Source: a virus | Taxonomy: Duplodnaviria; Heunggongvirae; Uroviricota; Caudoviricetes | Length of the DNA stretch: 64,000 nucleotides | Direction: 5' to 3' (one strand) | Virus record (IMG/VR): IMGVR_UViG_2703718833_000007 | Coordinates: 1 to 64,000 of that record | In this document: one piece after another, positions 15,434 through 59,361 of the stretch | Numbering within the stretch: the first letter of the stretch is position 1 | How the letters are laid out: every line of letters starts with the position of its first letter | The notes under the pieces: generated by a model | Databases searched by the model: none | Told to the model about the DNA's origin: nothing | The model's input: the letters and a program-made list of their open reading frames with translations, nothing else | Position numbers and translations under genes: made by a program

Positions 15434-15854
15434 TGCGGCAGATTTACTACGAATCGCAGCGGAAACAATAGAGCAAAGGGGTAAACAAAACGGATACGAC
15501 AGAAAAGAGGAAAAATCAGCGCCAAAAATAGCCACTATTTACAACGCTAAGAAGGGTACAAATTTAACCCCGCTTGATGTATGGGATCTGTTGATTTGTC
15601 TCAAGGAGGCGCGTTTAGAGGCCATTTTGGTAAATGGTTCTGACCCTACTGATACTTTGGTTGACTTGATTAGCTACAGCGCACTAAAAGCTGAGCAGAT
15701 ATTAAGCGATCATGAGGAAGAGCAAAAGAAAAAACAGTTCACTGCTCTTAATCCTCAATGTGGTTGTATTTCAACTCGGCTTGATTTGAGTTTTGACAGA
15801 TCTGAAGCTATTCGCGATAAGAGGTATGACCCAAATGAAAAAGGTGGCAATTGA
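15426..15854 (+). CDS. hypothetical protein (142 aa)
   Basis: Start at ATG 15426 with AAGAGGTG RBS. Confidence 0.4.
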   Translation: MTSAADLLRIAAETIEQRGKQNGYDRKEEKSAPKIATIYNAKKGTNLTPLDVWDLLICLKEARLEAILVNGSDPTDTLVDLISYSALKAEQILSDHEEEQKKKQFTALNPQCGCISTRLDLSFDRSEAIRDKRYDPNEKGGN

Positions 15855-48800: not shown

Positions 48801-51170
48801 GCTGAAGAGAAAAAAGCGACAGCGGAATCACTGGAAACCATCACGGCAGAAATGAACACGATGGATTCTAACCTTAAAGGTCAGATTTCTAACGTGCAGC
48901 GCGCAGTAGCTGACGAGGCCAGCGCCCGCGCTGAAGCTATTAACGGTGTAAATGCCTCAATAAGCAATCTTGATAAGAAAACTGACTCCAGCGTTAACCG
49001 CATTGATCAAGCGATCGCTGACGAGACGAGCGCACGGACTCAAGCCATCAGCGACGTAAATGCAAGTATCTCAACGCTAGACAAGAAAACTGACGCCAGC
49101 GTTAAACGCTTGGATCAGGCAATTGCAGATGAAACCAGTGCAAGAACTGAAGCCATCAGCGGCGTGAATGCCTCAATTTCCACGCTTGATGGCAAAGTTA
49201 CAAGCAATATTAACCGCATTGATAAAGCGATTGCAGACGAAACGAAAGCACGCACCGACGCGATCAGTAGCGTGAATGCAAGTATTAGCACACTTGAAAA
49301 CAATACAGAATCAGAAGTAAGCAGACTGGATCAAGCGGTTGCAGATGAAACCAGTGCCCGCACCCAGGCCATTAGCGACGTTAACGCCTCAATAAGCAAT
49401 CTTGAAAGCAAAACTGACGCGAGCGTTTCCCGTCTTGATAAAGCAATATCAGATGAAACGCAGGCAAGAAGCGACGCAGTAACAGAGGTTAAAGCTAATT
49501 TAACGACGCTTGAAAATAGCACAAACTCCAGTGTTAAGCGCCTTGATCAAGCCATCGCCGACGAATCAAGCGCCAGGGCGCAGGCAATATCAGGCATCAG
49601 CGCTGAACTTGGTATAGTTGAAAAAGATGTTGACAAAAACAGCGACGAAATAAATCAGACTAAAGCAAGTCTGCAAAACGCCTCAATCGCACTTATCAAC
49701 AACTCTATCGCTCAGACCAACACGCGGGTTACTCTTACTGCCCAATATAAGAAAGGTCGCAGAGAAACCAACGCGCAAATTGACCGTATTGACAATGTTG
49801 TAGCAGAGGAGAAAAAAGCCACTGCAGAAGCCATTAGCTCTGTAAACGCATCGATAACCGAACTTGATAAGAAGACAGAAGCAAGCGTTAGCCGCCTTGA
49901 TAGAGCGATTGCAGACGAAACGAGCGCCCGCAGCGAGGCCATCAGCGGTGTGAATGCCTCAATTTCCACGCTTGATGGCAAGGTGACAAGCAACGTAACC
50001 AGGATGGATAAGGCGATTGCAGACGAAACGAAGGCCCGTACTGACGCAATAAGTAGTCTTAACTCATCGCTTACCAGTACGATTAATTCTAAGGTATCAG
50101 AGGCGTCAACGGCACTTTCTACGCATGAAGCATCAAGCGCAGAAAAATTTAGCCAGATCTCTGCGTCTTTCGAATCTGTAAACTCAAGTATTACAGAATG
50201 GTCGCAGGCAATGGCAACGGCTGACGAGGCATTATCAAGCAAAATTGATCAGTTGACAGTAACAGTTAACGGGAACAAAACGGCGATAGAGACGACATCG
50301 AAAGCGTTAACCGACTTCAAAGGTAATGTTGATGCGTCGTACTCTATCAAGCTGGCGACCGACAACAACGGAATGAAATACGCAACAGGTATGTCGCTTG
50401 GCCTCACTGGTGACGGCACTAACTTTCAGTCGCAGTGTATTTTCCTTGTTGACCGTTTCGTGTTAATGACCGCAGCAAACGGCACATATACAACGCCTTT
50501 CTATGTCACCAATGGCGCAATGTATGTAAGAGAAGCGTTTATTAAGGACGGCACTATCAACTCCGCCAAAATAGCTGATCTAATACAGTCAGTTAATTAC
50601 AGCTGGGAAAACGGTACAGGATGGGCGATAAATAAAGACGGTAACGCAGTATTTAACCAGGTAACAGTAAGGGGTACGGTATACGCCACAAACGGTAAAT
50701 TTACTGGTGAGATTCAGGCCACAAGCGGGACGTTTAAAGGGACTGTACAGGCTAACAAATTTGTCGGTGATATTGTGGCTATTCACACTTTCCCTGATTC
50801 CAGCACTGTCTATAACTCAAGCCAGCGTGTAGCGCGTTTCTGTTATCGCTATGTGGACTCAACATCCGAAGAGACTTATAAAAACGTTATGTTCCAGGCA
50901 AGGTTATCAGGGGCTACCAACACATCACAGATCAATGCCTGGATAGCTGGTTCTCAGGTATTGGTTGGTAAGAAATACGGTAACGAAAACTCAAACGGCA
51001 TGTTCTGTTTCGGTATGGATGGTGTAACAAATCAGATTGTCGATGTTGTTATCGAGATCTACACTCCGTGGTCAACAGGTAACAACACTGGGATTACGTT
51101 AAGTTGTCCGACCATGTTTATAGGTCGCAGTAACGGCACATGGTCGAAATGGGAAGAATCACACGACTAA
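45831..51170 (+). CDS. host specificity protein J (central tail fiber), expanded to 1779 aa
   Basis: N-terminal 800 aa collinear with recalled lambda J (e.g. YHLRGLIVDVPDNYNPETRTYSG); large internal coiled-coil repeat insertion; distinct C-terminal domain. Confidence 0.9.
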   Translation: MSSGGGKAKTPTLLNDNLYHKQFYRVLDILSEGPIYGPVNQNAPLNNVMLNDTPITDANGNTSIPGISIAWRNGTADQSPINGFNAIESTVIVNAKVTHDTPIIRTVSDPNVNRVRLNLGVDSLVQSDDKGNQYNTSVMLMVDVKPSSSSTWSQIKIITIGPGKQSGEYLEAHIIDAPNEKPFDIRVRRITADSNSDLLQNDTRWSSYSEIIDDNLSYPHTAVAGAVIDHDQYTDTPTRNYHLRGLIVDVPDNYNPETRTYSGLWLGGFKKAYTNNPAWLFRYLVKNERFGLARHAGYIDVDDGALYTLSQYCDQLVSDGYGGFEPRMTLNAYITEQMSARDLLDNIAGMFRGIALWDGQRLTVMIDAPQDPIATITNANVVDGVFTRSSLPLAECYNAVIVSWTDPENGWEQSKEYVADDELIARDGYNETTLEAFGCTSRGQAYRAGKWLIETAKREPSKFTFKMARDAIHFTPGDIIEILDNNRAGARLGGRIVSNTGRVITVDKVDSEYIAPGDTISLLDSDGKFKKHQITGVNGNKITLASAPSWIRNGTVFAVSTNAAKPVLCRIISVAETENNSVYTIEAAQHDPHKQAVVDEGAIFEVNNDTLNHFRVPNIENLKVLNVGSETVQCRATWETQTTTHRLTFEIRVYNAEGRVVETYETTNYRYEFYGLDAGSYTLGIRGRNDTGMKGAESIVDLVIGVPLAPVGVNWVPGVFQATVYPISKTTMTTDTAYEFYFSGENQITDPSKVTTLAQFTGRGYQWTFGGMNTGHTYYVYVRTRNAFGVSDFVEASGKPTENFDEISDYVTKDVMGSEQFKDMIGDIKDLGDRTDVIENATNELKTATGNLKTATDNLTNITDDLRTETDNLTNITEDLRTDTDNLITETGSIKADTDTLKKETEDLYKKVKENADDIGQHESRIDSLEVSSEKVGSELAQAKASLQNASLALINNSLAQTNTRVTLTAQYNKGRAETKAQIDRIDNVIAEEKKATAESLETITAEMNTMDSNLKGQISNVQRAVADEASARAEAINGVNASISNLDKKTDSSVNRIDQAIADETSARTQAISDVNASISTLDKKTDASVKRLDQAIADETSARTEAISGVNASISTLDGKVTSNINRIDKAIADETKARTDAISSVNASISTLENNTESEVSRLDQAVADETSARTQAISDVNASISNLESKTDASVSRLDKAISDETQARSDAVTEVKANLTTLENSTNSSVKRLDQAIADESSARAQAISGISAELGIVEKDVDKNSDEINQTKASLQNASIALINNSIAQTNTRVTLTAQYKKGRRETNAQIDRIDNVVAEEKKATAEAISSVNASITELDKKTEASVSRLDRAIADETSARSEAISGVNASISTLDGKVTSNVTRMDKAIADETKARTDAISSLNSSLTSTINSKVSEASTALSTHEASSAEKFSQISASFESVNSSITEWSQAMATADEALSSKIDQLTVTVNGNKTAIETTSKALTDFKGNVDASYSIKLATDNNGMKYATGMSLGLTGDGTNFQSQCIFLVDRFVLMTAANGTYTTPFYVTNGAMYVREAFIKDGTINSAKIADLIQSVNYSWENGTGWAINKDGNAVFNQVTVRGTVYATNGKFTGEIQATSGTFKGTVQANKFVGDIVAIHTFPDSSTVYNSSQRVARFCYRYVDSTSEETYKNVMFQARLSGATNTSQINAWIAGSQVLVGKKYGNENSNGMFCFGMDGVTNQIVDVVIEIYTPWSTGNNTGITLSCPTMFIGRSNGTWSKWEESHD
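48350..50160 (+). repeat. in-frame tandem repeat region within J (short heptad-like repeats, then ~9 copies of a 36-aa / 108-bp unit, with an internal diverged duplication)
   Basis: Repeating units VNASIS.LD.KT..SV.R.D.AIADETSAR..AIS; block starting QAKASLQNASLALINNSLAQTNTRVTLTAQY recurs at about 49.65 kb. Confidence 0.7.
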
Positions 51171-51278
51171 TACTAACCCCGCTACGGCGGGGTTTATACA
51201 TATAGTAAACACATATTCGTCTGCGTAATGATAAGGCGTTAAAATAGTATGGTTAATTAACATAATGGAGTCATTGCG

Positions 51279-53216
51279 ATGATTTACACAACTGGAACAA
51301 TTGCCATCAATGGCAACACCGTTACAGGTACGGGAACAGATTTTTCCGCGCCGCTTTCTCTCATCCGTGTAGGTTGCACGCTCATTGCCATCGGCAATCC
51401 GGTGCAGATCTTTACCATTACGGAAATCAAAAACGGTACTGAACTGTCAGTTACGCCAGCGGCTAACCCTGCAATCCCTGCGGGAACAAAATTTAGTATT
51501 CTGCTTTCTGATTCGATCTCAGTTGATGGGCTTGCCCAGGACGTAGCTGAAACGTTGCGCTACTATCAGAGTAAAGAAACAGAAGTAGCGGAAGCGCTTG
51601 AATGGAGTCAGAACCATATAGCAGACAAGATCGGGCTTGGTGCAGATCACCGCGACTGGCCTGATTGCAACGATCCTACTGGTTATATAGGTTTTTGCCG
51701 TGCTGTAGAAGCTGAATCACGTAACTTTCCGTCAATCGCATCTGGCGAAATTTACTTGGTTGGTTGGCTTGCGCGTGGTGACAATGCCGTTATTAACGGC
51801 TGTTTCGTTGGTACAATTAGCCTTTCACTGTACACATACAGATATAACCCAACAGATGGTACGAAAGTATGGACACGACACGCAAGAAAAGATGAGGTAA
51901 GCAGATTGGCCCAGGGTTCTGACGAATCAGCTTTATGGGCCGCAGGAGGGAAGCAAAAATTTGTTCTGTTGGATGGAGGTGATGGGAATACTCTATCTTG
52001 GGGTGTTTGGGATGATGCTGTTAGTCAATGGAGTCCATTAGCAATAGCTCAGGGCGGTACTGGTGCGCTTGATGCTTTAACTGCTAGGAACAATCTAGGG
52101 GTGGGTGTAGGTGACAGTCCTCAATTCAGGGATGTGAATCTATCACGCTCAACAGATGAATCATCTGGCTTGGTATCTGGTGGTATACAAAGTTCCATAC
52201 TTCTGGGATCTGATGGTACTAAGCGTGCAGAAGGTTTATTTTATGTAGAACACCAACAAGATAAACCAACACAAGTAACGCTTTCTGTAAATGGAGCTAA
52301 CGAAGGTTATAAATATTTATGCTTTAATACAATGGGGCAGATTTTAGTAGATACAGCCATTTTCAGATCAAACGGCACTAATCCACTTATTATTAAAAGC
52401 AACACACCAACAATCTTATTCGTTGAAGAGGATCGCCCAAACGGATCACCTTATTACAGCTTAAATTTTGATGATGGTAACTGGCGCATTCAGAAAAGTG
52501 GCAATGGGTATAATGGTGAATATGTAATAAACTACGACTATCAAAAAAATGAAATAGAGGTTCCAAAACTCAAAGCATCAAGAATGAGTATTCTTGGGAC
52601 AGGCAGTAGTTTAGAAATAAATAGCGCTGGAACAGCAGATGAAACGACGTCTATTCAATCATGGGGTAATAGATCTGATCGCTTGTCTGTTTTTGAGGTA
52701 AGTTTAGATACAGGCTATTTATTTTACGCGCAGAAAAATGCTGATAAAAGCATGGTTTTATCAGTCAACGGGAAGATAGAATGCGTGTCATTATCCCAAT
52801 CATCTGACAGGGATCTGAAGGATAACATCAAGATTATCAGTGACGCCACTGAAGCCATCCGTAAAATGAACGGGTACACCTACACGCTTAAAGAAAACGG
52901 CCTGCCTTACGCTGGCGTTATCGCTCAGGAGGTCATGGAGGCAATACCGGAAGCAATAGGGTCGTTCACAAAGTACGGTGAAGAACTGGCAGGCCCGACA
53001 CAAAGCGGTCATGAACTGCGAGAAGAAACCCGTTTCCTTAGCGTTGACTACGCAGCAGTCACTGGTTTACTTGTCCAGGTGGCACGCGAAACAGATAACC
53101 GCGTCACCGAACTTGAAGAGGAAAACGCCAGCCTGCGAGATAACATTGCCGCAATGGATGAGCGTATCGCAAAACTTGAAGCGCTTGTCAGCAAGTTGAC
53201 TGGAAGCGAAAAATAA
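51279..53216 (+). CDS. tail fiber protein with C-terminal intramolecular chaperone (S74-type) domain
   Basis: 645 aa; C-terminal segment DLKDNIKII...GYTYTLKENG...AGVIAQEV typical of self-cleaving chaperone domain; AT-rich middle segment. Confidence 0.7.
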   Translation: MIYTTGTIAINGNTVTGTGTDFSAPLSLIRVGCTLIAIGNPVQIFTITEIKNGTELSVTPAANPAIPAGTKFSILLSDSISVDGLAQDVAETLRYYQSKETEVAEALEWSQNHIADKIGLGADHRDWPDCNDPTGYIGFCRAVEAESRNFPSIASGEIYLVGWLARGDNAVINGCFVGTISLSLYTYRYNPTDGTKVWTRHARKDEVSRLAQGSDESALWAAGGKQKFVLLDGGDGNTLSWGVWDDAVSQWSPLAIAQGGTGALDALTARNNLGVGVGDSPQFRDVNLSRSTDESSGLVSGGIQSSILLGSDGTKRAEGLFYVEHQQDKPTQVTLSVNGANEGYKYLCFNTMGQILVDTAIFRSNGTNPLIIKSNTPTILFVEEDRPNGSPYYSLNFDDGNWRIQKSGNGYNGEYVINYDYQKNEIEVPKLKASRMSILGTGSSLEINSAGTADETTSIQSWGNRSDRLSVFEVSLDTGYLFYAQKNADKSMVLSVNGKIECVSLSQSSDRDLKDNIKIISDATEAIRKMNGYTYTLKENGLPYAGVIAQEVMEAIPEAIGSFTKYGEELAGPTQSGHELREETRFLSVDYAAVTGLLVQVARETDNRVTELEEENASLRDNIAAMDERIAKLEALVSKLTGSEK

Positions 53217-53245
53217 GAGGTGATGTGCGAAGAACATCGCCGCGC

Positions 53246-53275
53246 GAAACGAGGCTCACGCCTCGTTTCTTTTTG
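53246..53275 (+). terminator. rho-independent terminator at end of prophage late operon
   Basis: 10-bp perfect stem GAAACGAGGC/GCCTCGTTTC, loop TCAC, then TTTTTG. Confidence 0.65.
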
Positions 53276-53649
53276 TGTACCAAATAGTGACCAAATTTTA
53301 AAAAACAAAACTAAATCATACATAACACACTGTTTTTAAAGAGATAATATTTAACATTAACCATTCCAGACAGGACTGGTGAGTAAGTCCAGGGTATTGA
53401 AGTTGTGCGTAATCATTGAGATCCCGTTATTTTTATCAATTTTTGTTGCTATCCGATCGCAAAAAAGCCACGTCATATGATCAGATAATTCTGATAATGA
53501 TAGACGCTATTTAACACTTCACACGGTTTGTATACGGATAAGCATTTTGCTTTTTGTATTCAATTTAGACAGAATTTTATTAATCATTTCAGGGTAATGG
53601 GGTGATGAGATGTTGCGTAACAGGGCCAGAAGGCTAGACTACAAAATAA

Positions 53650-54654
<1,005 letters not shown>

Positions 54655-54700
54655 CAAAAGCAATTTTTCCGGCTGTCTGTATACAAAAACGCCGCAAAGT

Positions 54701-54714
54701 TTGAGCGAAGTCAA
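54701..54714 (+). promoter_or_regulatory. FNR-box upstream of fnrS
   Basis: TTGAGCGAAGTCAA matches TTGAT-N4-ATCAA consensus, centred about 42 bp upstream of predicted sRNA 5-prime end. Confidence 0.5.
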
Positions 54715-54749
54715 TAAACTCTCTACCCATTCAGGGCAATATCTCTCTT

Positions 54750-54871
54750 GCAGGTGAATGCAACGTCAAGCGATGGGCGTTGCGCTCCATATTGTCTTAC
54801 TTCCTTTTTTGAATTACTGCATAGCACAATTGATTCGTACGACGCCGACTTTGATGAGTCGGCTTTTTTTT
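54750..54871 (+). ncRNA. fnrS: FnrS small regulatory RNA
   Basis: Between zntB and dbpA; begins GCAGGTGAATGCAACGTC and ends with GCCGACT...AGTCGGC hairpin plus T8; matches recalled FnrS locus. Confidence 0.6.
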
Positions 54872-54928
54872 GCCTGTTATTTATCAGCGTCTACCCTTTA
54901 AGAGTCCACCCAATGACCAGAGGGAAAT

Positions 54929-55102
54929 ATGACGACACTTATTTATTTGCAAATTCCTGTCCCTGAACCGATTCCTGGCGATCCTGTTCCAGTGCCCGAT
55001 CCGATCCCTCGCCCGCAACCCATGCCTGACCCACCACCCGATGAAGAACCGATTAAATTGTCGCATCGTGAGCGTAGATCTGCGAGGATACGCGCCTGCT
55101 AA
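54929..55102 (+). CDS. small proline-rich ORF (57 aa)
   Basis: AGAGGG RBS; MTTLIYLQIPVPEPIPGDPVPVPDPIPRPQPMPDPPPDEEPIKLSHRERRSARIRAC; coding status unverified. Confidence 0.3.
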   Translation: MTTLIYLQIPVPEPIPGDPVPVPDPIPRPQPMPDPPPDEEPIKLSHRERRSARIRAC

Positions 55103-55131
55103 CTTTGCGTCGATGACCACGAGAATAGATT

Positions 55132-56505
55132 GTGACCGCTTTTTCTACCCTGAATGTTTTGCCTCCCGCCCAACTCACGAACCTTAATGAGTTGGGTTAT
55201 TTAACCATGACGCCGGTGCAGGCCGCCGCGCTTCCGGCGATCCTTGCCGGAAAAGATGTTCGCGTGCAGGCGAAAACCGGCAGCGGCAAAACGGCGGCTT
55301 TTGGCCTCGGCTTGTTACAGCAAATTGATGCGTCGCTATTTCAAACCCAGGCTTTAGTGCTGTGTCCTACGCGTGAACTGGCGGATCAGGTGGCAGGTGA
55401 ATTGCGTCGGCTGGCGCGTTTTCTGCCAAATACCAAAATTTTGACGTTGTGCGGTGGTCAACCGTTCGGTATGCAGCGTGATTCGTTGCAACATGCGCCG
55501 CATATTATCGTGGCAACGCCGGGGCGTTTGCTGGATCACCTGCAAAAAGGCACGGTATCACTGGATGCGTTGAATACGCTGGTGATGGATGAGGCCGACC
55601 GCATGCTGGATATGGGATTTAGCGATGCCATTGATGATGTCATCCGTTTTGCGCCTGCATCTCGACAGACGCTTCTGTTTTCGGCAACCTGGCCGGAAGC
55701 CATCGCTGCAATCAGCGGACGAGTGCAACGCGATCCTTTGGCGATTGAAATTGACTCAACAGATGCTTTGCCACCCATTGAACAACAATTTTATGAGACA
55801 TCCAGCAAAGGCAAAATTCCTCTGTTGCAACGGTTATTAAGCTTGCATCAGCCATCCTCTTGCGTGGTGTTTTGCAATACCAAAAAAGATTGCCAGGCTG
55901 TCTGCGACGCGCTGAATGAAGTAGGGCAAAGTGCATTGTCATTACACGGCGATTTGGAGCAACGCGATCGCGATCAGACCCTGGTACGTTTTGCTAACGG
56001 TAGCGCCCGTGTACTGGTCGCGACTGATGTTGCTGCGCGTGGTCTGGATATTAAATCGCTTGAGCTGGTGGTGAACTTTGAGCTGGCGTGGGACCCTGAA
56101 GTTCATGTACATCGCATCGGTCGTACAGCTCGTGCAGGAAATAGCGGTCTGGCGATCAGTTTCTGTGCTCCGGAAGAAGCACAGCGGGCCAATATCATTT
56201 CTGACATGTTGCAGATAAAACTTAACTGGCAAACGCCGCCAGCTAATAGTTCCATTGCGACGCTGGAAGCAGAAATGGCAACGTTGTGTATCGATGGCGG
56301 GAAAAAAGCCAAAATGCGCCCGGGTGATGTATTAGGTGCACTGACAGGAGATATCGGGCTTGATGGCGCAGATATTGGCAAAATCGCCGTGCATCCGGCG
56401 CATGTCTATGTCGCGGTCCGTCAGGCTGTTGCTCATAAAGCATGGAAACAGTTACAGGGCGGGAAGATTAAAGGAAAAACGTGCCGGGTGCGGTTATTAA
56501 AATAA
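55132..56505 (+). CDS. dbpA: ATP-dependent RNA helicase DbpA
   Basis: 457 aa; DEAD-box motifs (GSGKT, DEAD, SAT, HRIGRTAR) and C-terminal RNA-binding domain; GTG start. Confidence 0.9.
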   Translation: MTAFSTLNVLPPAQLTNLNELGYLTMTPVQAAALPAILAGKDVRVQAKTGSGKTAAFGLGLLQQIDASLFQTQALVLCPTRELADQVAGELRRLARFLPNTKILTLCGGQPFGMQRDSLQHAPHIIVATPGRLLDHLQKGTVSLDALNTLVMDEADRMLDMGFSDAIDDVIRFAPASRQTLLFSATWPEAIAAISGRVQRDPLAIEIDSTDALPPIEQQFYETSSKGKIPLLQRLLSLHQPSSCVVFCNTKKDCQAVCDALNEVGQSALSLHGDLEQRDRDQTLVRFANGSARVLVATDVAARGLDIKSLELVVNFELAWDPEVHVHRIGRTARAGNSGLAISFCAPEEAQRANIISDMLQIKLNWQTPPANSSIATLEAEMATLCIDGGKKAKMRPGDVLGALTGDIGLDGADIGKIAVHPAHVYVAVRQAVAHKAWKQLQGGKIKGKTCRVRLLK

Positions 56506-59151: not shown

Positions 59152-59361
59152 TTAATTTGAATACAATGCAATTCTCGAGGACTGAAGTTTCTCGCAATTA
59201 AAATTTATCAGTTTTACTTTCTGCTCTCTGGAAACGCCTGCTTCTTTTTTACCTGAGAGCATTTTTTCGCATTCTGATTTCGTTAGTTTAGATTTTGAAT
59301 ATCTTGTCCAGTTAGTAGGAGTGCCACCTTCCTTTTCAATAGTGGCGGTAATTTTATACAT
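59152..59361 (-). CDS. rcbA: Rac small protein RcbA-like
   Basis: Track ORF 93 aa; likely 69 aa from MYKITATIEK; assignment from recalled Rac gene order. Confidence 0.5.
   Translation of the reverse strand: MYKITATIEKEGGTPTNWTRYSKSKLTKSECEKMLSGKKEAGVSREQKVKLINFNCEKLQSSRIALYSN

Follow-up and report, generated by a model that had tools for sequence, protein, structure and literature searches.

Proline-codon leader open reading frames (ORFs) are known from Salmonella, where mgtP and mgtL precede mgtCBR and mgtA and sense translation status. These leaders act via alternative RNA hairpins (attenuation). PPP and PPD motifs depend for their translation on elongation factor P (EF-P). The small RNA (sRNA) FnrS arises by class II activation by FNR and pairs, in an Hfq-dependent manner, with its target mRNAs at their ribosome-binding regions. 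Here, the interval 54701–55102 was analyzed in a 64,000-nucleotide (nt) stretch of DNA (positions 1 to 64,000 of IMG/VR virus record IMGVR_UViG_2703718833_000007; referred to below as the window), for which a first-pass annotation had described an FnrS locus and a proline-rich ORF of 57 amino acids (aa) upstream of dbpA. We are highly confident that the interval, a piece of E. coli chromosome, contains two catalogued genes, fnrS and ynaL; their identity is established, and a ynaL-dbpA operon, coupling and a cis-element role are what we infer beyond it. Both genes were already known, and nucleotide constraint at the 3' end of ynaL is the sole new detail.

Like mgtP and mgtL, ynaL is a small ORF that contains proline codons in a row and immediately precedes another gene, dbpA. 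By analogy with those leaders, EF-P- or Pro-tRNA-dependent transit through ynaL could set downstream expression. Unlike in the mgtP and mgtL systems, no conserved alternative structure was detectable in ynaL-dbpA and no terminator-like site follows ynaL; ynaL is also far longer, at 57 aa, and is conserved as a protein. The features of ynaL and the dbpA start are as follows.

54920–54924, plus strand: Shine-Dalgarno (SD) sequence GAGGG of ynaL, placed by pairing to the 16S ribosomal RNA (rRNA) 3' end.
54929–55102, plus strand: ynaL (b4743), a proline-rich small protein of 57 aa, from the ORF, RefSeq, Pfam and the K-12 annotation.
55028–55045, plus strand: polyproline motif D-P-P-P-D-E, residues 34–39, with D34–D38 invariant in 22 aligned homologs.
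55049–55067, plus strand: block 1, CCGATTAAATTGTCGCATC, or CCGATTAAA(T/A)TGTCGCATC across genera, codons P I K L S H, nucleotide-invariant.
55076–55096, plus strand: block 2, AGATCTGCGAGGATACGCGCC, codons R S A R I R A, nucleotide-invariant.
55120–55134, plus strand: dbpA initiation region, with SD CGAGA at 55120–55124 and GTG start at 55132–55134.
55132–56505, plus strand: dbpA, a 23S-rRNA-specific DEAD-box helicase and the downstream neighbor of ynaL, from the ORF list and annotation.

The region from the zntB stop to the dbpA start was aligned across 10 genera (Escherichia, two Citrobacter, Salmonella, Leclercia, Pseudocitrobacter, Klebsiella, Enterobacter, Kosakonia and Raoultella). The varying position of block 1 falls in the L/M codon (TTG or ATG), and the spacer between the blocks comprises 8 variable nt in E. 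coli and 8–9 in the other genera. Block 2 holds the rare codons AGA, AGG and ATA, all within the last 8 codons of ynaL. Codon usage was compared over the same genera in columns with an invariant, degenerate amino acid, and a column was scored if all genera shared the codon. Identical codons were found in 9/9 informative columns of the last 20 codons of ynaL, in 0/12 of its proline-rich core, in 14/208 of zntB and in 24/311 of dbpA. At the combined zntB and dbpA background rate (38/519, 7.3%), the chance of 9/9 is ~6e-11. The longest run of identical codons was 9 in ynaL, as against 2 in zntB and 1 in dbpA.

Metagenome loci were picked by peptide patterns lying outside the blocks, yielding 31 distinct sequences, and these carried one synonymous change in the blocks (CGC to CGT). 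The Pro, Asp and Glu codons just 5' of the blocks, together with the ynaL stop codon, vary even within E. coli. Each of 5,393 E. coli genomes carries the 49-nt element once. Judged from these alignments, the synonymous-site constraint in the last ~50 nt of ynaL is real, and no description of it was found in the literature searched.

The first-pass annotation had called the 57-aa ORF unannotated and of unknown status, a label that has to be withdrawn: it is ynaL (b4743). The RefSeq name 'proline-rich small protein YnaL' (WP_001296046.1) stood under every full-length match among those listed, and Pfam PF23677 matched at 136.9 bits (cut-off 27), with residues 1–57 on profile positions 1–57. Table 1 of VanOrsdel et al. 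2018 (PMC6001520) lists the identical 57-residue sequence, detected there by immunoblot of a chromosomal sequential peptide affinity (SPA) tag; YnaL is also noted there as positive in a tetracycline ribosome-profiling screen. Translation of the identical protein has therefore already been checked in the literature. The accompanying description of a proline-rich ORF with a good ribosome-binding site was correct, with ATG at 54929 and GAGGG at 54920–54924. Pairing of this SD was −6.3 kcal/mol in E. coli and −7.4 to −11.0 kcal/mol in the other nine genera, and the ORF was intact, with an ATG start and SD, in all 10. Compared with K-12 YnaL (PF23677, b4743), the amino-acid sequence and the position 5' of dbpA are the same, with no difference.

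YnaL homologs numbered 164, and all source-named ones among the 120 listed belong to the Enterobacteriaceae. The N-terminal 10–15 residues are leucine-rich and variable (22 homologs). Residues 14–41 carry proline at almost every second position and end in the invariant DPPPD, followed by EEP; the tail has the consensus IK(L/M)SH-xxx-RSARIRAC, of which RSARIRAC is basic. Each of the 12 amino-acid-invariant codon columns of the proline core is encoded by 2–4 synonymous codons. On this codon comparison, the core is under purifying selection at the protein level.

A Salmonella enterica homolog (P0053) has a 70-aa YnaL in which 10 residues of the proline-rich repeat (PIPDPRPHPQ) are internally duplicated; repeat slippage can evidently lengthen the (P-x)n rod and leave the C-terminal part as it was. 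The Klebsiella and Raoultella genes have 4–5 extra codons, and 14 nt lie between their end and the dbpA GTG. A YnaL 100% identical to that of E. coli was found on a 336-bp contig of ~1.1x coverage in an Alkalicoccobacillus porphyridii assembly (NZ_VLXZ01000104.1), which is almost certainly E. coli contamination. The record CP182556.1 ('Shigella flexneri SFBU1023') has YnaL at 52% and ZntB at 58% identity, a frameshifted dbpA and no FnrS match; it looks like an error-rich assembly, not real divergence, and was left out of the comparison as error-ridden.

The dbpA SD, CGAGA, is invariant and weak (~−3.0 kcal/mol in the 10 genera; −3.4 in Salmonella). The start is GTG in nine genera; in Citrobacter sp. 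NCU1 the tblastn-derived start falls 3 nt early on ATT, with GTG immediately next. The ynaL stop and the dbpA start are separated by 29 nt here and by 14–30 nt in the nine other genera, on the same strand. Because the dbpA GTG and its weak SD lie 14–30 nt past the ynaL stop, ynaL may be a coupled leader for dbpA. From this arrangement we infer that ynaL and dbpA are one transcription unit and that dbpA translation is coupled to ynaL translation. A ynaL-dbpA operon was suggested by VanOrsdel et al. 2018 (PMC6001520). One further element lies upstream.

54890–54897, plus strand: conserved TCTACCCT, lying between the fnrS terminator and ynaL and containing a candidate −10 (TACCCT) for a promoter of ynaL-dbpA.

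CTAC(C/G)CT is invariant in the 10 genera amid a variable spacer. TTGCCT (54870–54875) lies 16 nt 5' of TACCCT in E. coli, a −35 spacing that is not kept in Citrobacter sp. NCU1. TCTACCCT was not called by the promoter scan, and a promoter role for it is putative. The candidate −35 TTGCCT would overlap the FnrS terminator T-run. The TCTACCCT octamer recurs in dbpA codons 5–7 (55145–55152), in E. coli only. A sigma-S −10 was considered for TCTACCCT and found unsupported by one proteomic study (PMC13393375), in which DbpA levels were higher in exponential phase than in prolonged stationary phase. This abundance pattern fits growth-linked control and does not separate coupling from the alternatives.

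We favor a bicistronic mRNA in which dbpA initiation would depend on ribosomes that have just terminated at ynaL. With its PPP motif and rare codons, ynaL could make this ribosome flux respond to EF-P and to the supply of tRNA. The invariant 3' end of ynaL (~50 nt) would be a sequence-specific cis element acting on the dbpA initiation step. We put forward, as a speculative and on balance unlikely reading, that the blocks are an undescribed cis-element and that, with PPP and AGA/AGG/ATA, ynaL senses translation status and gates DbpA synthesis. EF-P- and rare-tRNA-dependent transit of ynaL would then set re-initiation at the dbpA GTG. Nothing on dbpA regulation or on what YnaL does was found in the literature searched.

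Several results weigh against the coupling and cis-element reading. No stable hairpin was found: the fold of the 141-nt E. coli segment had z = −0.06, and that of the 48-nt core, folded in 13 sequences, had per-species z of −1.0 to +0.6. A covarying consensus structure was likewise rejected, as the RNAalifold consensus scored −10 kcal/mol, its covariation term was +0.47 (a penalty) and nearly all pairs were invariant. Rfam gave no family on the blocks even at E <= 10. Conservation of the proline core as protein points to a role for YnaL itself, beyond that of a leader. A separate dbpA promoter inside ynaL is a live alternative.

Other explanations for the blocks were also tried. For rRNA mimicry or complementarity, the best alignments to 23S, 16S, 5S, tRNA-Ile, tRNA-Ala and the rrn spacers fell within shuffle distributions, both in sense and as complement. 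In particular, 23S nt 2454–2606 (H89–H92, with hairpin 92 the DbpA target) showed no resemblance, and no H92-like hairpin was present in the leader. CsrA-bound leaders carry GGA in a hairpin loop, and the motif GCG-AGGAUA-CGC is present here as a candidate site. A CsrA-bound leader was rejected on the crosslinking-immunoprecipitation sequencing (CLIP-seq) of Potts 2017, in which the fnrS peak is followed directly by one at azoR, none lies in ynaL-dbpA, and dbpA is listed as No, NS. Pairing of the FnrS seed was best at the ynaL SD (−13.2 kcal/mol) and was equaled by 33/300 shuffles. An overlapping ORF was not supported, since the other five frames were without conserved length or start; the antisense frame is open solely through proline-codon composition. 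As to a dispersed repeat or regulon motif, no other copy of the blocks was found in the window at up to 3 mismatches.

The alternative that survives best is that YnaL is a free-standing functional protein, for example a proline rod with a basic tail binding DbpA, rRNA or the ribosome, and that the 3' invariance is a DNA-level signal (a dbpA promoter or operator lying inside ynaL, or an antisense promoter) and not translational coupling. We consider this combination a serious possibility, though still short of probable. The proline core is selected at the amino-acid level with synonymous change left free, as this alternative expects. AlphaFold2 gave YnaL an extended geometry that was locally confident only in the proline stretch (residues 21–40, predicted local distance difference test ~91). 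The same model had no secondary structure and no globular fold (predicted template modeling score 0.23), and no YnaL relative was found among solved structures. On the DNA side, two blocks with a variable spacer of ~8–9 bp would also fit protein-binding DNA sites, and by eye the minus-strand block 1 TGcGACAAT resembles an extended −10. A sigma-70 promoter scan of 54600–55200 called nothing on either strand, however, and in the one −35-like hexamer of block 1 (TTGTCG) the leading T is the sole varying position (T or A). Nor was a known transcription-factor motif recognized, by inspection only.

The predicted rod invites comparison with TonB. Like the TonB proline-rich spacer, (Glu-Pro)n(Lys-Pro)n, YnaL has an alternating X-Pro repeat and is predicted to be an extended rod. 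Unlike TonB, it has no TonB N-terminal anchor or C-terminal domain, and only the proline-rich spacer aligns. The NCBIfam TonB model (NF008084) matched YnaL residues 9–43 at 20.8 bits (E = 2.9e-4; curated cut-off 315). TonB homology was rejected because the score is far below the cut-off, and the likeness is compositional.

A further alternative, which we hold to be quite improbable, is that ynaL is a regulatory upstream ORF only, with a functionless peptide and with polyproline and rare-codon pausing controlling dbpA. The invariant PPP motif, the conserved AGA, AGG and ATA in the last 8 codons and the steady close spacing to the weak dbpA initiation site are all in line with it. More than 20 residues outside PPP are nonetheless invariant or nearly so in the 22 homologs while their codons vary, so the peptide is selected over a longer stretch than stalling needs. 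SPA-tagged YnaL also accumulates to a detectable level. That the 57-aa ORF is an unexpressed chance frame in a G+C- and proline-codon-rich spacer, as its small size and the composition-driven openness of the antisense frame might suggest, is already refuted and close to inconceivable given an ATG and strong SD in 10 genera, codon-periodic substitutions, its own Pfam family and the published tagged-protein and ribosome-profiling signals.

Upstream of ynaL, the sRNA gene and its signals are placed as follows.

54701–54714, plus strand: FNR box TTGAGCGAAGTCAA of the fnrS promoter, in class II position.
54737–54742, plus strand: candidate fnrS −10 hexamer CAATAT, 7 nt 5' of +1, assigned from position.
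54750–54871, plus strand: fnrS, FNR-activated, Hfq-dependent sRNA of 122 nt, from Rfam and the mapping of K-12 b4699.
54844–54871, plus strand: fnrS intrinsic terminator, a stem-loop at 54844–54863 followed by T8 at 54864–54871.

The FnrS call of the first-pass annotation was upheld in each of its parts. Rfam RF01796 (FnrS) matched 54750–54867 at 134.8 bits (gathering score 60; E = 4.4e-24) over model positions 1–119 of 119, and K-12 fnrS (b4699, 1409129–1409250) maps onto 54750–54871 of the window. The proposed FNR half-site pair does lie at the right distance: TTGAGCGAAGTCAA is centered at −42.5 counting from the FnrS 5' end at 54750, as is the site under the FNR chromatin-immunoprecipitation sequencing peak for fnrS (Myers et al. 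2013, PMC3688515). All 10 genera keep TTGA-N6-TCAA at the same distance from FnrS +1. The bare pattern is not enriched in the window (2 matches vs 1.97 expected), so the FNR box is meaningful by position and conservation, the motif alone occurring at chance rate. The sole other match in the window is TTGATTTGTCTCAA at 15591–15604, whose left half fits the FNR consensus TTGAT; chance expects one.

GCAATAT is kept in 9/10 genera (GCACTAT in Leclercia). This −10 was not called by the generic sigma-70 scan, as expected for an activator-dependent promoter without a −35. The strong terminator was found where it had been proposed; by terminator scan its stem has 8 pairs, 5 of them G-C, and a loop of 4, and it corresponds to the 3' hairpin of the Rfam model. 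The FnrS RNA is almost invariant in the 10 genera, with fixed spacing to the box and the −10 and with variable flanks. It lies between zntB (ydaN) and dbpA in all of them, and in five genera other than that of the window the same order came with Rfam matches. Compared with K-12 FnrS (RF01796, b4699), the position, the FNR box at −42.5 and the terminator are the same and no difference was detectable: the fnrS of this E. coli strain is the same gene as that of K-12.

In K-12, whose fnrS is identical, FNR-dependent accumulation of FnrS without oxygen and its dependence on Hfq are known from the work of Durand & Storz 2010 and Boysen et al. 2010, both cited by PMC3688515. FnrS targets are listed in Table 5 of Myers 2013 (PMC3688515), examples being sodB, gpmA and cydDC. 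Under anaerobiosis, FNR on the box at −42.5, overlapping the −35 region, would recruit RNA polymerase. In the resulting 122-nt FnrS, the terminator U-tail and an internal U-rich single-stranded stretch would serve Hfq binding, and pairing with the ribosome-binding regions of mRNAs not needed without oxygen would repress them. In vivo CsrA CLIP-seq places peak_142 on FnrS (K-12 1409142–1409250, window 54763–54871; PMC5694010). CsrA alone did not bind FnrS with high affinity in vitro, according to the authors of PMC5694010, and the peak may reflect indirect crosslinking.

Two other frames compete with fnrS, and neither is coding. The ORF at 54748–54966 (72 aa, TTG start in the ORF list) had been judged probably non-coding, and the alignment agrees: its TTG is replaced by TCG or CCG in the nine other genera, and its length runs from 21 to 100 aa. 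The ATG ORF at 54758–54901 lies inside the FnrS 5' stem without an SD, and ranges from 31 to 98 aa across genera, two of which have a T-run indel that shifts its frame. Pfam gave no match for either ORF.

The surrounding DNA was compared with E. coli K-12 MG1655, which the window matches at 99.95% identity over a segment that starts at 53365 and reaches at least 57621; the comparison with K-12 fnrS proposed in the first-pass annotation is thereby made, at 99.95% identity across the locus, with b4699 at 54750–54871. The 481-nt region was found in 5,391/5,426 complete E. coli genomes. The order zntB-fnrS-ynaL-dbpA-ttcA is kept in the 10 enterobacterial genera, and at the protein level ZntB(CorA)-YnaL-DbpA-TtcA is kept in all genera examined. 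Six of ~5,390 E. coli copies of the locus sit on records labeled plasmid, which may be mislabeled replicons or large chromosomal segments on plasmids.

K-12 homology starts only at 53365, and prophage DNA lies upstream of the junction, including a 645-aa tail-fiber-like ORF at 51279–53216. Only the first ~17 codons of dgcM are left, as a remnant inside the minus-strand ORF 53357–53476, and this diguanylate cyclase gene appears to be disrupted by the prophage. No complete E. coli genome covers >=80% of 50500–53700; in the best partial matches, phage tail-fiber genes likewise adjoin ynaN-zntB. RalA (RF02694), the antitoxin sRNA of the Rac prophage, has a full-length Rfam match at 59177–59355 (225 bits), so that in this strain the zntB-fnrS-ynaL-dbpA-ttcA core segment is flanked by two prophages. 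The 15-codon small ORF ynaN ('protein YnaN', b4773) was placed at 53610–53657 by offset from RefSeq records. It is another annotated micro-ORF immediately 5' of a gene (zntB), and it is below the size of the ORF list.

FnrS has been characterized since 2010, and ynaL is annotated, detected and assigned to Pfam, so the earlier description of the interval in itself adds nothing new; the main value of the check is that the label 'unannotated' is corrected. The invariance of ~50 nt at synonymous sites across at least 10 genera is a testable lead on dbpA regulation and on the role of YnaL. The invariant stretch sits in a polyproline small ORF abutting dbpA, the gene of a 50S-assembly helicase with a poor initiation site. 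If the sensor proposal is true, translation capacity would feed back on 50S biogenesis.

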